From the NCBI GenBank assembly GCA_002327845.1, contig DCUP01000006.1, positions 70,015 to 134,014 on the forward strand: 64,000 bases of DNA, written 5' to 3'. Each line of letters opens with the position of its first letter. Position 1 is the first letter of the stretch. The DNA comes from Patescibacteria group bacterium UBA2211. Lineage in GTDB: Bacteria; Patescibacteriota; Minisyncoccia; Minisyncoccales; Minisyncoccaceae. Below are positions 21,735 to 30,094 of this stretch, one piece after another. The notes beneath the pieces were generated by a model. It did no database searches, was not told where the DNA came from, and worked only from the letters and a program-made list of their open reading frames with translations. A program made the position numbers and the translations under genes.

Positions 21735-22046
21735 TTAACAATGTTTTAAAAGCTCTTTAGTGTTAAAGCATTGATGATTAATACAATTACTCATCTTACA
21801 ATCGAAACAGACATAATCGCAACCTGTAAAAAATTGACTGTTAGTACACTGCATATTTTTACAGTTTAGACAAAAACGATTCGATTCGTAAAATTCGCAA
21901 AGATTATTAGGGCAAGATAGACAACATCCTCCGCACCTATTTTGAGAGATTAGTCGAGTAGCTTTGGTCATTTCGATCACACCTCTTTCCATTATCTTGA
22001 TCAGTGCTATGCGCTGCTTCCAAGTTCTTTGCAAAACGAAGTTCAT
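21735..22046 (-). CDS. Cysteine-rich small protein (14 Cys in the last 78 aa), higher-GC orphan
   Basis: CGGCCLSCPNNLC...CLNC...CDYVCFDCKMSNC...C. AAGAGGTG SD 8 nt before the internal ATG at 21971 (MTKATR) suggests a 78-aa product. Confidence 0.5.
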   Translation of the reverse strand: MNFVLQRTWKQRIALIKIMERGVIEMTKATRLISQNRCGGCCLSCPNNLCEFYESNRFCLNCKNMQCTNSQFFTGCDYVCFDCKMSNCINHQCFNTKELLKHC

Positions 22047-22159: not shown

Positions 22160-23974
22160 TTACTCGTCTTCCAAAGAAAATACTATTAGTCCTTTTTCTT
22201 TTATCAATTCCTCTTGTCCAAAATCGTTTAATTTAAAGTTTAAAACATAACCAACTTTTCTTTCAATTTTTCTTCCTGTATATTTGCTTGCATCAGGATC
22301 CCACTCTTCTAAAATAATAATGTCTCCTTCTTTTACTTCGAACTCAGCAACCCTAAGTTCGAAATTCTTCTTTTTTGAATTAACTAAATCAAAATATTCA
22401 GGAGGAATTTTTCTCTTAATTATATTTGGATTTGAATTAGGATTATGATTTAGTGGTGTTTCTTTATTTTTTTTCTTGTTAATAAAAAGTGATTTTGACC
22501 AGTAATATATAACAAGAATAATTAAACCAACAATAATAGCAATAAGTAAAATAATGATAGCGATAACACTTATTGTCCATTGCCCTATATTAAAATTCAG
22601 TGGTTGATTAGTGATAATAATCGTTTTTTCTATTGACTTAATTCTTGCGCCCTCATCATTGACCACCTCAACTGATACTTTATAGCTACCACCTCTTAAC
22701 TCTTCATTAATGGTGAAAGTAAAGTTTCCATCTTTATCGCTTTGAGTGATAAGCGCTTGAGCATCTTCCCCCTCTCTCTGAAGCCATAAAACAACCTTAG
22801 AATCAGAATATGTCGTTCCTTTTATATCAAAAACTTCTCCACTTTTCGCTTTTTCAGGACATTCAGTTATTTTTGGCGTATCTAAAGGATTAATAGTAAA
22901 TTCTACAGAATTGGCTGACATATTTCCAGCCTTATCAACAGCTTTAGCAATTAAAAGATATTTGCCATAACTTAATATTGGAGTTTCATAAATGCCGCTT
23001 CCAGTATCTTGCCAGTCTTGCATTCTTTCTTCATTTATTTGAATTTCATAATGATCAATACCAGAAGTTTCATCTTCGGAAACAAAACTAAATCTAACTC
23101 TAGGATTAGTTAAGTTATCTCTTTTGACTTCTTGGATATCAAAACTATTTGGTTTTTTAGTATCAACTTGAAAACGGAAATGAGAAACCTCTCCCCAGCC
23201 ATTAATATTGCGGAACTGAAGATGAAGATACCAAATTCCATCTTCTATATTATTTAATTCTTTTGAATTAATTAAAGTTGTAGAAATCATTGTCGGAATC
23301 GATTTTGCTATTTTATTAACAAGGATACGAACCCCAGTAATACTTGGAGACAAAGACCAATTAAATTTTGCGGTACTTGCGTTGTACCACCTACTACTAT
23401 CAGGATGAGTTGAAGAAGATATTATCGGTGCAACAGGAACACCTGGAGTTTCTGGCTCTTCTATTGTTATTGCTTTCGCTTCACCCAATGTAAACGTTGC
23501 AGTCCCTAAATTTGAAAGAATATTTGTTCCTTGGCCATCATTCGCAAGAACAGAACTAGAAGAAAAAGAAACAGGAGCTGAGCCAGTAGATTTAACCTTA
23601 AAATTAACTGTTAATATCTTTCCAGACGAACCAGTGAAACCAGACAACGCAATGCCCTCAAAATTAACTGTTCCAGTACTATTAGAAAAAGATGGCTCTT
23701 GGGCCCATAAAGTAAAAATTGATCCCGCCTTAGAAATAGAAACAACCTCAAGTTTATCTTGAGGGAATGATATAGTTCCTGAAGCAGCATTCATTGCTTG
23801 ATCAGAACTAGAGACATAGACATTAACTGGAATAGAACCACCAACAGTATAGGAACCTGAAGCTGGATAAAAAACCAAACTTGCAGCTTGTATAGACGTC
23901 GGCAAAAAACCCAAAAAGGTAAATAATAAAATAACAAAAAATTTTAAAAATATTATTTTTTGTATTTTTTCCAT
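22160..23974 (-). CDS. Cohesin-domain surface protein with Ig/FN3-like repeats, TM anchor and cytoplasmic ASCH/DUF3850-like tail
   Basis: Signal peptide and cohesin-like N-domain (LVFYPASGSYTVGGSIPVNVYV...NAASGTISFPQDKLEVVSI...VLANDGQGTNIL). STHPD...WY module. TM WTISVIAIIILLIAIIVGLIILVIYYW. Tail IPPEYFDLV...FELRV...GDIIILEEWD...YTGRKIERKVGYV. Confidence 0.7.
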   Translation of the reverse strand: MEKIQKIIFLKFFVILLFTFLGFLPTSIQAASLVFYPASGSYTVGGSIPVNVYVSSSDQAMNAASGTISFPQDKLEVVSISKAGSIFTLWAQEPSFSNSTGTVNFEGIALSGFTGSSGKILTVNFKVKSTGSAPVSFSSSSVLANDGQGTNILSNLGTATFTLGEAKAITIEEPETPGVPVAPIISSSTHPDSSRWYNASTAKFNWSLSPSITGVRILVNKIAKSIPTMISTTLINSKELNNIEDGIWYLHLQFRNINGWGEVSHFRFQVDTKKPNSFDIQEVKRDNLTNPRVRFSFVSEDETSGIDHYEIQINEERMQDWQDTGSGIYETPILSYGKYLLIAKAVDKAGNMSANSVEFTINPLDTPKITECPEKAKSGEVFDIKGTTYSDSKVVLWLQREGEDAQALITQSDKDGNFTFTINEELRGGSYKVSVEVVNDEGARIKSIEKTIIITNQPLNFNIGQWTISVIAIIILLIAIIVGLIILVIYYWSKSLFINKKKNKETPLNHNPNSNPNIIKRKIPPEYFDLVNSKKKNFELRVAEFEVKEGDIIILEEWDPDASKYTGRKIERKVGYVLNFKLNDFGQEELIKEKGLIVFSLEDE

Positions 23975-24819
23975 AAAAATTTATAAGTTAGGAATATTAA
24001 AATTATTCCTATCGTTATAATAACATAAAACAAATAATTTTTGTATAGTGTGTTAAGCCTAACTACTCTTTCGTTGCCATTATTGTCTACTGCTTTAACT
24101 AAAATTTCTTCATTTGGATTTTGATTTTGCAAAAGATAAGGACTTTCTGCTCTAACACAAGTTCTTCTTTCTTCGCATACTTCATAATAATTAATTCCCG
24201 AACCCTTATCTTGAGTAGCGAACACTAAAAAGTATTTTCCATTAAAAATTGTTGGATCTTTTGTTATTGTTACATTAAATTCTTCTGGTACATCAATATC
24301 TTTCTTTTCAATTGTCTTTAATTGTGAAGCTGGTGCGTACTGAGAAACAACAAATTGAAAATCAGAAATTGTCGTCTTCGTTTCTGTCCCTTTACCGTCA
24401 TTAAGTAATGCTTTCGTGTTCGTAATTTTAATAGAACCAGCTCCTTCTTGTATCGATTCAAAAATAACTGAAAATATCAAACCTCTTTTATCAAAATAAC
24501 CACCAGGAATTATTCCTGAGAATAAAATATTATTACTTCCTATTTTTGGTCGTTCATTCCAAAAATTAATAATAGAATTTCCATCTCTTATTTCTTTCAG
24601 TTTAAGAAGTTTTTCTGGAAAAATAATATTTCCTTCGATAGCATTAATGTCTTCTTCTTCAGTATTAATAAATAGATTGACTTCAAATTCATCTCCCATT
24701 TTAATTTGCGGACTTTCAACTTCAAAAAAAACTTCTGCCGCAAAAACTGAAGATATAGGGACCAGAAATACGGCTATAAGAATAATTATTTTAAATTTTA
24801 TAATTTGTTGTGTGTTCAT
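23953..24819 (-). CDS. Cohesin-domain protein with C-terminal TM anchor
   Basis: Signal peptide. Cohesin-like FFEVESPQIKMGDEFEVNLFI...INAIEGNIIFPEKLLKLKEI...ALLNDGKGTE. C-terminal LFYVIITIGIILIFLTY. Confidence 0.7.
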   Translation of the reverse strand: MNTQQIIKFKIIILIAVFLVPISSVFAAEVFFEVESPQIKMGDEFEVNLFINTEEEDINAIEGNIIFPEKLLKLKEIRDGNSIINFWNERPKIGSNNILFSGIIPGGYFDKRGLIFSVIFESIQEGAGSIKITNTKALLNDGKGTETKTTISDFQFVVSQYAPASQLKTIEKKDIDVPEEFNVTITKDPTIFNGKYFLVFATQDKGSGINYYEVCEERRTCVRAESPYLLQNQNPNEEILVKAVDNNGNERVVRLNTLYKNYLFYVIITIGIILIFLTYKFLWKKYKK

Positions 24820-24822
24820 ATA

Positions 24823-26328
24823 TCATCCTGTCCAATAATAAGCCATAATACTAAAATCAACTAAATCGACTTTGCCATCATTATTTAAATCAATGTTTGC
24901 TGGCGGTGATGCTTTTTTATACCAATAAGCAGCAATAGAAAAATCGACAAGATTTATCTTCTTATCATTATTTACGTCACCCCTTGAAACAACTTGGGTT
25001 ATTGGATTATAAACATTCTTTGTTCCAACCACAAAAGATACAACTTTACTAAAAGAACTTATATTACCATTAAGCGCTACTTTTGATCTTGTAGAATGAT
25101 CTCCCATCTCAAGGAGTGCTGTATCAAAATTGTATAAATAGACACCGTTTTTATCGGATTGTATTTTGCTAAAAATTTCTTCATCGGAATTAACTGAAAT
25201 TGTTATTTCACTGTTAGGGGTACTTTGTCCAAAAATTTGAATATCATCTCCCCTCTTTACTTCTTTTTTATCAACTGCAATTGTGGGAGCTATAAAAATA
25301 CCTCCGACACTAGTAGTTGCTCCTGAAGTTACGCTTATCGGAAAAGTTAAAAGAGAAGAACGAACACCTTTGCTGTCTTCCGAATATACGCTGAAAATAT
25401 AATTACCACCAGCAAGACCGCTTAAAGTTAAAGAAAAATTAGCATTAGCGTCAGTAATAGTAGTTGCTGCAACTTGAGCGTCTTTTAATAAAGTAATAGT
25501 ACTCTTAGGATAAGCTCGTCCAGAAAAAATAGCACTGGTAACGGGGGGAATATAGACTCCTCCGCCTCCGCCTCCTCCACCACCACCGCCACTAGGACAA
25601 CTTCCACAGTCAGCAGAACAAGTACTACAAGTTTCTGAACCATTGCAAGTACTATCACCACAAGAAGGAGGACAAATTCCACAATCAGTAGAACAAGTAC
25701 TACAAGTTTCTGAACCATTGCAAGTACTATCACCACAAGAAATAAGAGCATCGCCCAAAATAGCAAAATAGCTAAAATTTGAACTAGTTGCTGTAATTTT
25801 GTTTAAATTTTCATCTACAACGCTATCGGTTAAAAGGCTCCAAGCTGAACCATTCCAACGATAAACACCTAGAGTACTTTCGTTTATTCCACTAATGTCA
25901 GAATTTTCATAAGAAAAATCTAATGTAATATCCTTATCAAAAACGTGAACAGGAGTTTCATCGCTTGTTTTTTTGAAAGATATATTATAAAAAACCTCAG
26001 CTCCTAATTTTCCAATTGGTAATTGTTTACTATCTATAACAGATGCTTTGGGAATAGAATGAATAGTAGTTTCTACTTCGTCCCCCGAAGTTAAAACATA
26101 GTCTGGAGTATTAATTTCAAGACTTGAATTATTGGGATTAGTTATTGTTACTATTGATGGTATAGTCGTGTCTATATTCTCAATTTTTTCAGCATAATAA
26201 ATTTGAATTTGAAAATTAGCACTTGATCCTGCCGATACTAATTGTGGAATAAAATTAAAAATGCAAAACAAAAAAACAGATAAAAGAATAAAAAAACTGA
26301 TTTTCAATTTTGTGCTCTTGTTTTGCAT
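24823..26328 (-). CDS. Secreted protein with Cys-rich tandem modules, poly-Gly linker, Ig-like region and C-terminal dockerin
   Basis: Signal peptide. 2x CGDSTCNGSETCSTCS[TA]DCG[IS]CP. G11 run. Dockerin duplicated Ca-loop DVNNDKKINLVDF / DLNNDGKVDLVDF (24826-24987). Confidence 0.75.
   Translation of the reverse strand: MQNKSTKLKISFFILLSVFLFCIFNFIPQLVSAGSSANFQIQIYYAEKIENIDTTIPSIVTITNPNNSSLEINTPDYVLTSGDEVETTIHSIPKASVIDSKQLPIGKLGAEVFYNISFKKTSDETPVHVFDKDITLDFSYENSDISGINESTLGVYRWNGSAWSLLTDSVVDENLNKITATSSNFSYFAILGDALISCGDSTCNGSETCSTCSTDCGICPPSCGDSTCNGSETCSTCSADCGSCPSGGGGGGGGGGGVYIPPVTSAIFSGRAYPKSTITLLKDAQVAATTITDANANFSLTLSGLAGGNYIFSVYSEDSKGVRSSLLTFPISVTSGATTSVGGIFIAPTIAVDKKEVKRGDDIQIFGQSTPNSEITISVNSDEEIFSKIQSDKNGVYLYNFDTALLEMGDHSTRSKVALNGNISSFSKVVSFVVGTKNVYNPITQVVSRGDVNNDKKINLVDFSIAAYWYKKASPPANIDLNNDGKVDLVDFSIMAYYWTG
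25602..25740 (-). repeat. Tandem 75-bp in-frame repeat (2 copies) encoding the Cys-rich module
   Basis: 25602-25665 versus 25677-25740 differ at 2 positions. A 50-bp core is identical. Confidence 0.9.
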
Positions 26329-26336
26329 TTTAATTT

Positions 26337-28253
26337 TTAATTTGCAGTTATGGTCAATACCATATTAATATCATAATCACTTGCCACTGGTTGTTCTGTG
26401 GGAATTTTTTGACTAATAGAAACACCTTGAAGCGTCCAATCTCCAATATCATCAGAAGCTGAGGTTGCACTAAGTAACGTAATAGAATTAACGGGTGTTC
26501 CAGCTACTTCATCGAAAGCAGCTGACGATCCCTTACTAACACCAGTCAAGGTACACGATCCACATTGTCCTATTGCTAAAGTAGCAACAGAAGGATCAAT
26601 TGTCATTTGTCCACCTACAGCATCAGCGTCTGTAGCATGATCAGTACATCCTGTACCTGTTCCCGGATCATTAAAATCATAATCTGTACCAGCACTGTCC
26701 CAAACATTTGTTGTTGCTTGTGCTGCTACAGTTAAAGTCCAACCATTATCAGCAGCATCATTATTATTAACATAAATCTGTTGCGAAGCCGTACCAAAAC
26801 TCCCCGTAATTGTTTGACAAGAAAAAGAAAAAGTCGCACTACTCATGGCCATTGTTGGACTAGAAACAGTAACATAACTAGCATCAACAATATCAGCAGA
26901 TAAAGAACCACAAGATCCTGTCGCTTGGTCAGAAGTTGCAGCAGAATAAGGACCTTCTCCTGAAGCATTAGTCGAACGAACCTGATAACGATAAATAGTA
27001 CCGCCACAAGTTAATCCAGAATCATCATAATAAGCATTTGTTACTCCTGAAGCAATTTCAGAAAAATTTGTACAACCAGTTCCAGAACAACGCTCTACTC
27101 TATAACTAGTCGCTCCGCCAGTTGGAGCAGTCCAATTAAGTCTTAAGCTTGTTCCTTGAACGTTAGTAAAATTAAGAGAAGTCGGTGCCCCTGGACGAGT
27201 TAAAATACTTGCTTCAGCTGATAATGGAGATTCTTCGCTTGCAGTATCATAATCAGTAACTGAATAATAATATGTTGTATTTCCTGTTGTTGAACTATCA
27301 GTATAAGAATTAGTAGTAGAGTTTGCTAAAAATGTTGAAACTGGAGAAGCACCATCTCTATAAACCTTGTAAGGGGTTGTTGCATGAAGTCCATTTGCTC
27401 CAGTTCCAGCCGTACTAGTTGTCCAATTAAGTTGCGCATTTGTTGTTCCTGCTGGCGCAGAAGCACTAAGTCCAGTCGGAGCAAAATTAACAACGATATT
27501 ATCAACAGCAATACTAGTTCCAGCAGCGGAAGAATTTCTCACATTAAAATTAACACGAATAGTATAATTAGTACCACCAGTCAAAGAAACATCACTACTA
27601 AAACTAGTTGTTGTCCATGAAGTACTGGCGGTCATAAGAGCACAACCAAGATTAGCTATACGTGTTGTATTACCAGAATCCCAAATTTCAAGAGAAACCA
27701 TGCCAGTACCCCAGCCTGTACCAGTACCATAATAACTAAATTTTCCTTTTGCTTTTACTGTTCCACTACCAGGAGCAGTAACTGTTTGATAAATCATTCC
27801 TCTATAATTTTTATTTTTTGTTGCTGGAGTACCTGCTGCAAAAGCTGTTTGTCCTCCCATACTACTACTATATATAAAAGTTAAAAAAGTGTATTCAGTA
27901 GCATCAGTACCATTACACGCAGTTGATGATCCGCTTGAAGTACCATCTGTAGATGTCCAACCAGTAGAATTACCATTAAAATTCCAATTATTTGTTTTAT
28001 TTAAAGCAAACACTTCTTCCGTTTCAAAGGGAACTCTAGGATTTTGCCAAATTGGAGGCCAACCAGAAAATAACCAACTAAAAATTAAAGTAAAAACTAC
28101 AAGTTTTATAAAAATCTTTTTAGAGAAAAATTGTTTAGAAAATTTTACTTCTTTAAAAATATTCCGCCAGAAATTTGCAAAAATATCTATCCCTTCATAC
28201 GTTTTTTTATTCTGTTGGTGGGACTTTAATTTTTTGTCTTGTTTTAAGAGCAT
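26337..28253 (-). CDS. Large surface protein: TM anchor, CBM/jelly-roll-like region, two FN3 domains, C-terminal WxL-like domain
   Basis: FN3 signatures (LNWT...YKVYRDG; LRLNWTAP...YRVERC...YRYQVRSTN). IAVDNIVVNF end of a jelly-roll-like module. The last ~190 aa are paralogous to 29387..30094. T/S/G/A-rich. The start overlaps the upstream gene by 47 nt, so it is uncertain. Confidence 0.65.
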   Translation of the reverse strand: MLLKQDKKLKSHQQNKKTYEGIDIFANFWRNIFKEVKFSKQFFSKKIFIKLVVFTLIFSWLFSGWPPIWQNPRVPFETEEVFALNKTNNWNFNGNSTGWTSTDGTSSGSSTACNGTDATEYTFLTFIYSSSMGGQTAFAAGTPATKNKNYRGMIYQTVTAPGSGTVKAKGKFSYYGTGTGWGTGMVSLEIWDSGNTTRIANLGCALMTASTSWTTTSFSSDVSLTGGTNYTIRVNFNVRNSSAAGTSIAVDNIVVNFAPTGLSASAPAGTTNAQLNWTTSTAGTGANGLHATTPYKVYRDGASPVSTFLANSTTNSYTDSSTTGNTTYYYSVTDYDTASEESPLSAEASILTRPGAPTSLNFTNVQGTSLRLNWTAPTGGATSYRVERCSGTGCTNFSEIASGVTNAYYDDSGLTCGGTIYRYQVRSTNASGEGPYSAATSDQATGSCGSLSADIVDASYVTVSSPTMAMSSATFSFSCQTITGSFGTASQQIYVNNNDAADNGWTLTVAAQATTNVWDSAGTDYDFNDPGTGTGCTDHATDADAVGGQMTIDPSVATLAIGQCGSCTLTGVSKGSSAAFDEVAGTPVNSITLLSATSASDDIGDWTLQGVSISQKIPTEQPVASDYDINMVLTITAN

Positions 28254-29361
28254 AGGGCGGTTCTAGTTTATTTACTTTAGCAATAAGCTTCCAGGAAACA
28301 TTAAATTTATCAGCAAGAGATTTAATATTTTCACCCGACTTAACAGAATAATCAACCCAATTATCTTTAATCCATCTCTTTCTCTTCTTTGAAAGCCAAA
28401 GAAGGAATACGGCAAACAAAATCAATAATAAAACTACAATTTCTATTATTAACCCTGGTAGTGTTGGAAAACTAAAAAACCACACAGAAGGACCTACTAG
28501 TTTAGTTAATTTTTTACCACTTTCTATTCCAATTCCAGCTTCTTGGTTTTCATCATACTCAACGGTAAATGTTGACACATACAAACCACCCCAAAAAGGT
28601 TTTTTAAGTTCAAAATTCCAATCAGAAGTTTCTCCTCGTAAAATCGGGTATTGTCCGCCATGAGTGATATATTTTAAGCCAAAAAAATAACGAGTCGTTA
28701 CTTGCGCATTCGCATCGATAGAAACATTACCATTGTTTTTCACTAAAGGATGCAAAGAAAAACCTCCTTTATTGTTTGGTTTTACGGTAAAACCAACTAT
28801 TTCTAAATTTCTTGTAAGATCTCCTGGAATCGTAATTACAACTCGAAGACCGGTACGAAAAGATAAACTAGCTCCACTTTTATCATTCGTTTCTTCCTTC
28901 TTTTCTTGCATAACAATACAACCATTATGCTCTCCCGCGCTTGCATTTTCGGGAACATTAATAGTAAAAGGATCTATTTCGTTTGTTCCTGGCTCAAGAG
29001 TTATTTCAGATTTTTCAAGTTCTATCCATGTGCCAACATCTTTTTGTTTATCTAAAACTTGAGAACAAGCAAAAGCACCCTCAGTGGATGGAACAGAATC
29101 AACCGCATTAATTAATATCGTTTTTCGCTCACTGGTATTATTTAATATTAATACACCTTCTTCTTGAGTATCACCTGGTTCAAGAGTATGAACAAAAATA
29201 GATTCTGTACGAGGATTGCCATCTTGAGGATAAGCAGGTCTACCACCAAAACCACCATATTCAATCGCAAAAACATTATTAATATAAAAAGAAACAACTA
29301 ATATAGGCAAACAAATGGCAATAAGTCGTATCGCTCTTATTTTGATACTCAGGTTGTGCAT
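28207..29361 (-). CDS. DUF916/DUF3324-like (CscA-like) cell-surface protein with TM segment and C-terminal LysM
   Basis: FVHTLEPGDTQEEGVLILNNTSERKTILINAVDS...EGAFAC resembles DUF916. GFTVKPNNKGGFSLHPLVKNNGNVSI resembles DUF3324. TM LIIEIVVLLLILFAVFLLWL+KKRKR. LysM YSVKSGENIKSLADKFNVSWKLIAKVNKL...KIKVP. Confidence 0.6.
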   Translation of the reverse strand: MHNLSIKIRAIRLIAICLPILVVSFYINNVFAIEYGGFGGRPAYPQDGNPRTESIFVHTLEPGDTQEEGVLILNNTSERKTILINAVDSVPSTEGAFACSQVLDKQKDVGTWIELEKSEITLEPGTNEIDPFTINVPENASAGEHNGCIVMQEKKEETNDKSGASLSFRTGLRVVITIPGDLTRNLEIVGFTVKPNNKGGFSLHPLVKNNGNVSIDANAQVTTRYFFGLKYITHGGQYPILRGETSDWNFELKKPFWGGLYVSTFTVEYDENQEAGIGIESGKKLTKLVGPSVWFFSFPTLPGLIIEIVVLLLILFAVFLLWLSKKRKRWIKDNWVDYSVKSGENIKSLADKFNVSWKLIAKVNKLEPPYALKTRQKIKVPPTE

Positions 29362-29386
29362 AAATTTTTTATTAAATTTTAGATAC

Positions 29387-30094
29387 TTATAAAGCAGTTG
29401 CAGTAAGAACTAAATTAATATCATAATCGCTAGCAGCTGGTTGTTCTGCGGGAATTTTTTGACTAATACTAATACCTGTTGCTTTCCAATCACCGATATC
29501 ATTAGAACCACTTGTTGCAGAAATAATATTTATACTATCTGTTACGCCCTCACTAAAAGAGGATGGTGAAGCACCCAAGGTAACACCTGTTGTATCACAA
29601 CTTGCACAAGCTCCTTTTGATAACGTTCCAACCGATGGATCAACAGTCATCTGTCCACCAACAGTATCACCAACATCAGCACCATCAGTACAACCAGAAC
29701 TAGTTGGATCGTTAAAATCAAAATCCACACCAGCACTATCCCATACAGCACTAGTACTTGAACCTGCTAAGGCTAAATTCCAACCAGAATCAGCGGCATC
29801 AGGATTAGAAACATAAATTTGCTGAGTTGCTTCACCAAAAGTACCAGTTTTTGTTTGACAAGAAAAACTAAATGTTGCTGCAGTCATTGCAAAAGAAGGA
29901 CTTGCAACGGTAACATAACTACCATCAACTATGTCTGCCGCAAGAGTACCAGCATTAATAGTTTGAGTAAAGTTTGAGGTTGCTGATGCTAAAACATATG
30001 TTGTTCCTCCTAATCCACCAGCTAACAACACAGCTAAACACAATGTAACTGCTATATTTAATTTTCCTAAAAATATTCTAATTATATTTTTCAT
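29387..30094 (-). CDS. Secreted WxL-like domain protein
   Basis: Signal or anchor peptide. GTLAADIV...FAM...F.F, NPDAADSGWNLAL (GW.L), GDWKATGISI and C-terminal YDINLVLTATAL resemble WxL-domain layout. Confidence 0.55.
   Translation of the reverse strand: MKNIIRIFLGKLNIAVTLCLAVLLAGGLGGTTYVLASATSNFTQTINAGTLAADIVDGSYVTVASPSFAMTAATFSFSCQTKTGTFGEATQQIYVSNPDAADSGWNLALAGSSTSAVWDSAGVDFDFNDPTSSGCTDGADVGDTVGGQMTVDPSVGTLSKGACASCDTTGVTLGASPSSFSEGVTDSINIISATSGSNDIGDWKATGISISQKIPAEQPAASDYDINLVLTATAL

Follow-up and report, generated by a model that had tools for sequence, protein, structure and literature searches.

What use would an ultra-small bacterium, with a genome of about half a megabase, have for a dockerin and two cohesins? 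The question is raised by three consecutive genes at 22160-26328 on the minus strand of a 64,000-nucleotide (nt) stretch of DNA from Patescibacteria group bacterium UBA2211 (contig DCUP01000006.1, positions 70,015 to 134,014), which is called the window below and in whose coordinates all positions are given. The first gene, doc501, encodes a predicted secreted protein ending in a dockerin; the two that follow, coh288 and coh604, encode predicted membrane proteins carrying cohesins. Our answer, to which we assign a probability of roughly three in four, is that the trio forms a non-cellulosomal cohesin-dockerin cassette for surface anchoring, conserved in Patescibacteria. This phylum, also known as the candidate phyla radiation (CPR), is a very large and mostly uncultured assemblage of ultra-small, host-dependent bacteria, the surface biology of which is little known. 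The assembly comprises 526,355 bases in 11 contigs and is 92% complete; the window has a G+C content of about 30%, and its minus strand holds nearly all of the genes.

The open reading frame (ORF) calls and the domain assignments discussed below give the following features (aa, amino acids; TM, transmembrane; FN3, fibronectin type III; Ig, immunoglobulin).

24823-26328, minus strand: doc501, 501 aa; signal peptide, variable head, two Cys-rich repeats, poly-Gly, two Ig-like domains, dockerin
26230-26328, minus strand: doc501 signal peptide, aa 1-33, ending ...QLVSA/GSS, from hydropathy and sequence, with the cleavage site placed by eye
25744-26229, minus strand: doc501 lineage-variable head, aa 34-195, missing from most relatives
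25558-25737, minus strand: doc501 two 23-aa Cys-rich repeats (aa 198-220 and 223-245) and 11-Gly hinge (aa 247-257)
25009-25557, minus strand: doc501 two Ig-like stalk domains, aa 258-440 (boundaries approximate), Pfam Big_6
24826-24987, minus strand: doc501 type-I-like dockerin, two repeats of Ca loop plus helix, 7-aa linker, WTG end
23953-24819, minus strand: coh288, 288 aa; signal peptide, cohesin, FN3-like domain, C-terminal TM helix, tail WKKYKK
24325-24738, minus strand: coh288 cohesin domain, aa 28-165, from Foldseek and a profile built within this genome
24052-24300, minus strand: coh288 second beta-sandwich domain, aa 174-256, with the motif QDKGSGINYYEV, homologous to coh604 aa 271-351
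23968-24051, minus strand: coh288 TM helix, aa 257-284, from hydropathy (helix 259-287 in the model)
22160-23974, minus strand: coh604, 604 aa; signal peptide, cohesin, middle domain, OmpL47/FN3-like domain, Big_13, TM helix, cytoplasmic DUF3850 tail
23459-23884, minus strand: coh604 cohesin domain, aa 31-172, Pfam Cohesin
22640-23179, minus strand: coh604 stalk, OmpL47-type/FN3-like (aa 266-361) and Big_13 Ig-like (aa 362-445)
22505-22579, minus strand: coh604 TM helix, approximately aa 466-490, from hydropathy
22163-22435, minus strand: coh604 DUF3850 (ASCH-like) tail domain, Pfam DUF3850, 57 bits

The C-terminal module of doc501 is recognized by Pfam Dockerin_1 (PF00404) over aa 450-496, where its score of 30.0 bits (E 5.8e-7) exceeds the 22.9-bit cut-off, and the closest PDB sequence match of the protein is the dockerin chain 2y3n_B (E 0.003), with CelD and CelS chains matched as well. 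Its two repeats, DVNNDKKINLVDFSIAAYWYKK (aa 451-472) and DLNNDGKVDLVDFSIMAYYWTG (aa 480-501), are identical at 13 of 22 positions and both carry Asp or Asn at loop positions 1, 3, 5, 9 and 12, reading D-N-D-N-D in repeat 1 and D-N-D-D-D in repeat 2. In a family alignment of 24 sequences neither helix shows any variation in DFSI, and all of the proteins have WTG as their C-terminus. At least 87% of sequences retain L10, D12-F-S-I15 and A17 in both repeats, and at least 62% retain Y18. The dockerin is the most conserved part of the regions compared (mean p-distance 0.33), and this strong conservation, together with the invariant DFSI, fits a fixed protein-protein interface. The only hydrophobic segment detected by hydropathy in doc501 lies at aa 5-34, so that, for want of a second one, the dockerin is the only candidate anchoring device of this protein.

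We also modelled the dockerin and the short cohesin as a single 240-aa chain (dockerin, the residues WY, signal peptide, cohesin), obtained by translating doc501-coh288 through TGA with genetic code table 4; the alignment combined 18 paired rows, read through in the same way, with 82 unpaired fragments taken from related loci. Both modules fold in this model, with a predicted local distance difference test score (pLDDT) of 90.5. Dockerin helices are placed at 27-35 and 56-66, where 10-residue blocks have a mean pLDDT of 93-96, and a small bridge joins the two loops; the helices and the inter-loop bridge amount to the expected dockerin shape.

The cohesin of coh604 is matched directly by Pfam Cohesin (PF00963) over aa 43-148, with 31.9 bits against a cut-off of 24.1. 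The N-terminal domain of coh288 is assigned as a cohesin from its homology with that of coh604 (BLASTP E 1e-16) and from its predicted fold. By sequence, coh288 has no significant PDB match, either alone or as a profile, the profile giving sub-threshold matches to Ruminococcus flavefaciens cohesins (E 0.05-0.2). An AlphaFold2 (AF2) model built from an alignment of 35 homologues has a pLDDT of 80.5, and when it was searched against the PDB with Foldseek all of the 50 best matches were cohesin entries (probability 1.0, E 1e-10 to 2e-5), with target-normalised TM-scores of about 0.55-0.76 to single-cohesin chains. The top match is 2w1n, the cohesin+FN3 pair of C. perfringens GH84C (E 1.3e-10), followed by 2xdh; many of the others are dockerin-bound cohesins, among them those of the complexes 3ul4, 4dh2, 2vn5 and 6kgc. 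The second domain of coh288 shows beta strands in the AF2 model and matches coh604 aa 271-351 (BLASTP E 6e-5), and many of its residues are invariant among the aligned homologues. At least 1766 proteins make up the short-cohesin family, and all the named ones come from Patescibacteria. In each of the two cohesin proteins, hydropathy indicates an N-terminal signal segment and one TM segment near the C-terminus, which would make the cohesin the membrane-distal tip in both; in coh288 a single FN3-like domain forms the stalk between cohesin and membrane, some 90 residues long, and in coh604 the stalk runs to about 290 residues. An earlier note, made from the sequence alone, had described a duplicated dockerin in the 501-aa protein, three genes side by side, and a downstream pair each with a signal peptide, a cohesin-like beta-sandwich and a TM anchor. 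Its dockerin coordinates are right, and the match exceeds the Pfam cut-off; the adjacency holds, on one strand; and the architecture of the pair is borne out by hydropathy, by Pfam for coh604 and by the fold model for coh288. The note had also named a non-cohesin fold of the N-terminal domains as a ground for rejection, and both domains instead come out as cohesins, coh604 by passing Pfam and coh288 by its 50 best structural matches.

The pairing of these modules finds strong, if indirect, support in their uniqueness in the genome. A six-frame search of the whole genome with Dockerin_1 returned a single dockerin, that of doc501 (32 bits), and a search for the Ca-loop pattern likewise found doc501 as the only paired dockerin, along with two unrelated single loops. 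The corresponding six-frame search with Pfam Cohesin had a single match, coh604 (E 3.6e-9), and a hidden Markov model (HMM) of this cohesin family, run against the whole genome, returned exactly coh288 (E 6e-69) and coh604. That the sole dockerin and the sole two cohesins of a genome should be neighbours is, on the evidence of these searches, not a matter of chance.

Co-occurrence and gene order lend the same indirect support to a cognate relationship. Among 251 genomes sampled evenly from the order to which this one belongs, with the orthologue of doc501 (an "Ig-Ig-dockerin" protein, Doc below) and a strong cohesin (Coh) both called at E<1e-30, Doc was present in 65 and the cohesin in 77: both in 63, Doc only in 2, Coh only in 14 and neither in 172 (Fisher p 1e-42, uncorrected for the relatedness of the genomes). 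In several of the Coh-only genomes the cohesin lies at a contig end. Wherever a Doc locus had a cohesin among the matches listed on the same contig (57 loci in 52 genomes), the cohesin domain lay downstream on the same strand, at 64-3672 nt, in all 57. Six genomes belonging to other families of the order have a doc501 orthologue, followed in each by cohesin genes: a short-then-long pair in four, a short gene after which the contig ends in one and a single long cohesin in one.

A scan of one genome per species extended this to at least 558 confirmed related loci, from the best 80 of which the details of gene order were taken. The order there is Doc, a cohesin protein of about 300 aa and then one of about 450-600 aa, with exceptions essentially only at contig ends. 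Of the 66 among these 80 loci whose downstream flank reaches 2.8 kb or more, 64 have two or more cohesin genes; another count had given 59 of 66, five of the seven misses being filter artefacts in which two cohesin genes are actually present. The median gap between Doc and the first cohesin gene is 6 nt, and the two cohesin ORFs mostly overlap, as they do in the window (by 22 nt, with coh604 taken from its first start codon). Here the TGA of doc501, one TAT codon and the ATG of coh288 lie in one frame (24819-24825, minus strand). The same in-frame junction occurs in 22 of about 77 related loci, close to the chance expectation of about one third, so that programmed read-through is unlikely.

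The lineages represented in the best 80 loci include Portnoy-, Veblen-, Wolfe-, Kaiser-, Campbell-, Jorgensen-, Colwell-, Magasanik-, Taylor-, Zambryski-, Sung-, Komeili- and Nomurabacteria, Paceibacterota and Minisyncoccia, and also Ca. Microsyncoccus archaeolyticus PMX.50. The persistence of one gene order across the phylum suggests that this is probably a general way to fasten a surface protein. Doc orthologues occur in 38 of 401 genomes of a phylum-level sample (about 9%), and the cassette is found in 26% of the order sample; its distribution is thus wide but patchy. Doc is usually single in a locus, and the cohesins can be more numerous: some genomes have three to five paralogues, and in one (L019, G028:C1:104000-122000) Doc and the short cohesin are followed by a tandem array of five long-type paralogues. 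The locus of PMX.50 (L067, 6683-10292, plus strand) encodes a WxLIP-like protein, a Doc of 352 aa and cohesin proteins of 290 and 571 aa. The domains themselves are already named by NCBI, some members being entered as 'cohesin domain-containing protein' or 'dockerin type I repeat-containing protein'. For a cassette of this kind, a conserved operon in which Doc precedes two genes for membrane-anchored cohesins, we found no published description in the searchable texts, the coverage of which is incomplete.

In the arrangement that we infer, from the dockerin-cohesin contact and its need for calcium to the cohesin used and the purpose served, doc501 would be exported by means of its signal peptide and would have no membrane anchor of its own. 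Its dockerin would most likely plug, non-covalently, into the membrane-distal cohesin of coh288, of coh604 or of both, in a manner probably dependent on Ca2+ through the two EF-hand-like loops, each of which is followed by a DFSI helix. The cohesin partners would be type I membrane proteins with a single C-terminal TM helix each, differing mainly in the length of the stalk, and the tether would hold the Ig stalk, the Gly hinge, the Cys-rich module and the variable head at the cell surface. A secreted, unanchored dockerin protein beside anchored cohesins fits such an arrangement of anchor and cargo. Its role is likely to be the display of an adhesin, or of a protein that organizes the envelope, in a host-dependent ultra-small bacterium.

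The fusion model has a predicted template modelling score (pTM) of 0.67. Rough arithmetic puts the score expected of a confidently folded but undocked cohesin near 0.56, and that of a confidently docked dockerin at roughly 0.7 or above; the observed score would be in keeping with docking but might also come from packing of the helix formed by the signal peptide and linker. Several observations weigh against the proposal. A mirror-tree analysis with partial Mantel tests over 51 loci gave partial correlations with the dockerin of 0.24 for the short cohesin and 0.33 for the long one, as against 0.31 and 0.18 for the non-cohesin parts, so that no co-evolution signal specific to dockerin and cohesin was seen in these loci and neither cohesin was singled out; the cohesin domain is more conserved in the long protein (p-distance 0.47) than in the short (0.66). 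coh288 has no match in Pfam or NCBIfam, Pfam Cohesin (PF00963) included. The cassette is absent from all nine sampled genomes of the same genus and from about 74% of the order, and is hence dispensable. Finally, cellulosomes have the opposite stoichiometry to the one seen here, where a single dockerin faces two or more cohesin proteins, and the cohesins of the cassette may on that account have further ligands.

Some of these points would be accommodated if the genes cooperated in a larger envelope structure without any plug-and-socket contact, the dockerin-like module being a Ca2+-stabilised fold or a binder of glycan, peptidoglycan or a host molecule, and the cohesin-like sandwiches binding something else. 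The lack of cohesin specificity in the mirror-tree coupling and the atypical stoichiometry would be in keeping with this, as would the regular presence of other surface-protein genes upstream of Doc, a WxLIP_PGBD-like gene lying directly upstream in 44 of the 80 loci. We nevertheless consider it unlikely, given the near-perfect co-occurrence and adjacency of Doc and Coh, the invariance of the dockerin helices across the phylum, and precedent: to our knowledge, a canonical duplicated dockerin encoded beside cohesins binds a cohesin in every case studied experimentally (cellulosomes, C. perfringens, A. fulgidus). Adhesion in trans, in which doc501 would engage cohesins displayed by an adjacent conspecific cell, or a host receptor resembling a cohesin, and so serve aggregation or host attachment, appears very improbable. 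It would suit a protein with no anchor of its own in a phylum consisting mostly of episymbionts, one carrier of the cassette, Ca. Microsyncoccus archaeolyticus, being attached to methanogens (PMC10936435). The tight operon and the translational coupling of Doc with the cohesins suggest assembly in cis, however; the dockerin is highly conserved across lineages with presumably different hosts, and no sign of a host cohesin was found. That cohesin and dockerin are the defining modules of cellulosomes might suggest a minimal rack of enzymes for polysaccharide degradation, the chance of which we consider negligible: the one dockerin of the genome sits on an Ig-like/Cys-rich protein with no catalytic domain or carbohydrate-binding module (CBM) detected by Pfam or NCBIfam, each cohesin protein has a single cohesin, and the relatives share the same non-enzymatic architecture. 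With no enzymes, no CBM and no multi-cohesin scaffoldin, a cellulosome is ruled out.

On the reading that doc501 is tethered in cis by the membrane cohesins, the presence of two of them had been taken in the earlier note to suggest alternative or dual binding modes. The number of cohesins is not evidence for dual binding; the hint comes from the dockerin, whose internal symmetry matches the basis of dual (180-degree flipped) binding in type I dockerins. In type I complexes both dockerin helices lie on one face, which implies that each dockerin binds one cohesin at a time. By analogy, the two anchors are more likely to be alternatives, with a short and a long stalk, than parts of a ternary complex.

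The cargo has features of its own. The Ig-Ig-dockerin family has at least 2768 members, most of the relatives of doc501 being about 340-350 aa long, and the best 120, which like the other named homologues are from Patescibacteria, are 66-79% identical to its C-terminal 252 aa, which is unusually high for a surface protein. Big_6 matches aa 268-328 with 26.3 bits, slightly under the cut-off, which relatives exceed, and the second Ig-like domain has Big_13 matches in relatives. The two Cys-rich repeats are near-identical, with six Cys each; the region is found in most family members, one of which has a Pfam DUF4215 match. A poly-Gly hinge of 8-11 residues occurs in nearly all Doc family members, a sign that head and Ig stalk are probably joined flexibly. 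The head itself (aa 34-195) has a weak NCBIfam match to PGF-pre-PGF, at 21.7 bits and below the cut-off. The dockerin also occurs on much larger proteins encoded directly upstream of cohesins, of 1473 aa in one locus (L036) and in a frame of 1858 aa in another (G095); the same module on giant proteins beside cohesins fits a general socket for surface cargo. One Doc orthologue, in a 59%-complete genome (G125:C3:8042-9041), contains several in-frame TAG/TAA stops and is probably a pseudogene or an assembly problem.

The locus described here is a typical member of its kind, with one unusual feature, the ASCH-like tail of coh604. The stalk of this protein matches NCBIfam barrel_OmpL47 (28.5 bits, below cut-off) and Pfam Big_13 (43.3 bits), and Big_13 is retained in five orthologues. 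Hydropathy reaches its maximum of 3.78 at aa 459-499, beyond which extends a 105-aa tail, which in the PDB matches 3iuw (E 5e-4). Neither the five coh604 orthologues nor any of the 80 related loci has the DUF3850 tail. A search of a set of 5.8 billion proteins, restricted by length, found it only in coh604 and in one unrelated 366-aa DUF3850 protein, and the fusion of cohesin and DUF3850 accordingly appears specific to this lineage and unique. Since the identical coh604 protein is recorded on four contigs, the fusion is probably not an assembly accident.

The cassette forms the 3' end of a run of six surface-protein genes on the same strand (22160-30094, minus strand), and the upstream genes at 26337-30094 (minus strand) probably share one operon with it. 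Three features of this upstream region are listed below.

29387-30094, minus strand: 235-aa secreted protein, from the ORF call
28207-29361, minus strand: 384-aa membrane protein with WxLIP_PGBD (DUF916-type) before the TM segment and LysM after it, from Pfam
26337-26930, minus strand: C-terminal domain of about 190 aa of a 638-aa FN3 protein, resembling the 235-aa protein

WxLIP_PGBD is matched on the 384-aa protein with 33.3 bits against a cut-off of 27.3. The frequency with which such a gene directly precedes Doc means that the conserved cassette often comprises four or more genes. The domain common to the 235-aa protein and the C-terminus of the 638-aa protein recurs in five related loci (L021, L038, L047, L087 and L091). 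GW-x-L motifs can be seen in it by eye only, and neither copy has a Pfam WxL match even at E<=5; a WxL label for the 235-aa protein is thus unsupported by Pfam and was set aside. The region around the hydrophobic anchor at the N-terminus of the 638-aa protein (aa 43-87, ...WPPIWQNPRVP..., 27993-28127, minus strand) recurs at the N-termini of large upstream proteins in at least eight related loci and may be a shared anchoring or sorting signal. Single-linkage clustering of the neighbouring genes joined Doc with upstream surface proteins through their shared Ig-like domains and so gave no cleanly separated families. The best sigma-70-like site is TTGACA-17-TAAAAT at 30375-30347 (minus strand), and immediately after coh604 comes an AT-rich hairpin. 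Beyond the long cohesin, the related loci share no conserved gene family; in the window a very Cys-rich ORF of 103 aa with no family match lies there, just beyond the operon (21735-22046, minus strand).

A close comparison is with the single-cohesin anchoring scaffoldins OlpA and OlpC of Clostridium thermocellum (3ul4, 4dh2), in which, as proposed here, one type-I-like cohesin on a surface-anchored protein directly captures a secreted dockerin protein, the partner likewise having two Ca loops and near-symmetric helices. The anchor there consists of S-layer homology (SLH) repeats rather than a C-terminal TM helix, and the cargo is a set of glycoside hydrolases rather than a single non-enzymatic Ig/Cys-rich protein; in the present case, moreover, the host is a Patescibacteria genome of 0.5 Mb and the dockerin linker has only 7 residues. 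GH84C of C. perfringens (2w1n; also 2jh2 and 2vo8) shares with coh288 the succession of a cohesin and an FN3-type domain, and the modules of C. perfringens, as would those here, assemble secreted proteins outside cellulose degradation. In that organism, however, both modules are carried by secreted enzymes and toxins that link together, whereas the cohesins of the cassette are on dedicated membrane-anchored proteins and no enzyme is involved. The cohesin of Archaeoglobus fulgidus (2xdh) similarly belongs to an isolated pair with no cellulosome. A survey of non-cellulosomal cohesin and dockerin modules reportedly exists (Peer et al. 2009; PMC3035643, cited in PMC10066038) and presumably predates most Patescibacteria genomes.

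A likeness of another kind is to the Csc/WxL clusters of Firmicutes, in which DUF916, or WxLIP, proteins are found with WxL-domain partners. A WxLIP_PGBD protein is present in the same operon here too, and the logic of non-covalent surface display would be the same. Unlike those clusters, the operon has no WxL-domain protein among the candidate partners that Pfam could detect (E<=5), and its WxLIP protein carries a LysM after the TM segment; we know of no cohesin or dockerin in Csc clusters. The cassette thus departs from the known kinds in its TM-anchored cohesins, in having one Doc to two or more Coh, in its non-enzymatic cargo and in being a fixed unit of three genes in an ultra-small phylum. 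A more speculative and rather doubtful extension would have the cassette, the WxLIP-like protein and the large variable upstream proteins form a conserved base plate for host contact in episymbiotic Patescibacteria, with a universal, invariant dockerin socket and heads or giant fibres that lineages could swap, and, in this genome, with the cytoplasmic tail of coh604 coupling surface engagement to an intracellular response involving RNA or nucleotides.

Enrichment cultures of Ca. Microsyncoccus archaeolyticus PMX.50, which parasitizes methanogenic archaea, are described in a paper (PMC10936435) that, with its supplements, makes no mention of cohesin or dockerin; with the archaeal host present, they offer a setting in which the localisation and expression of the cassette could be examined. 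The pair could also serve protein engineering as a compact, orthogonal cohesin-dockerin pair. From the perspective of the organisms themselves, the retention of these genes in a genome of 0.5 Mb, in 26% of the genomes sampled from the order and in about 9% of the phylum sample, along with conservation of the dockerin across classes, suggests that Patescibacteria may possess in them a basic and reusable means of fastening surface proteins, in some relatives giant ones, to the membrane.

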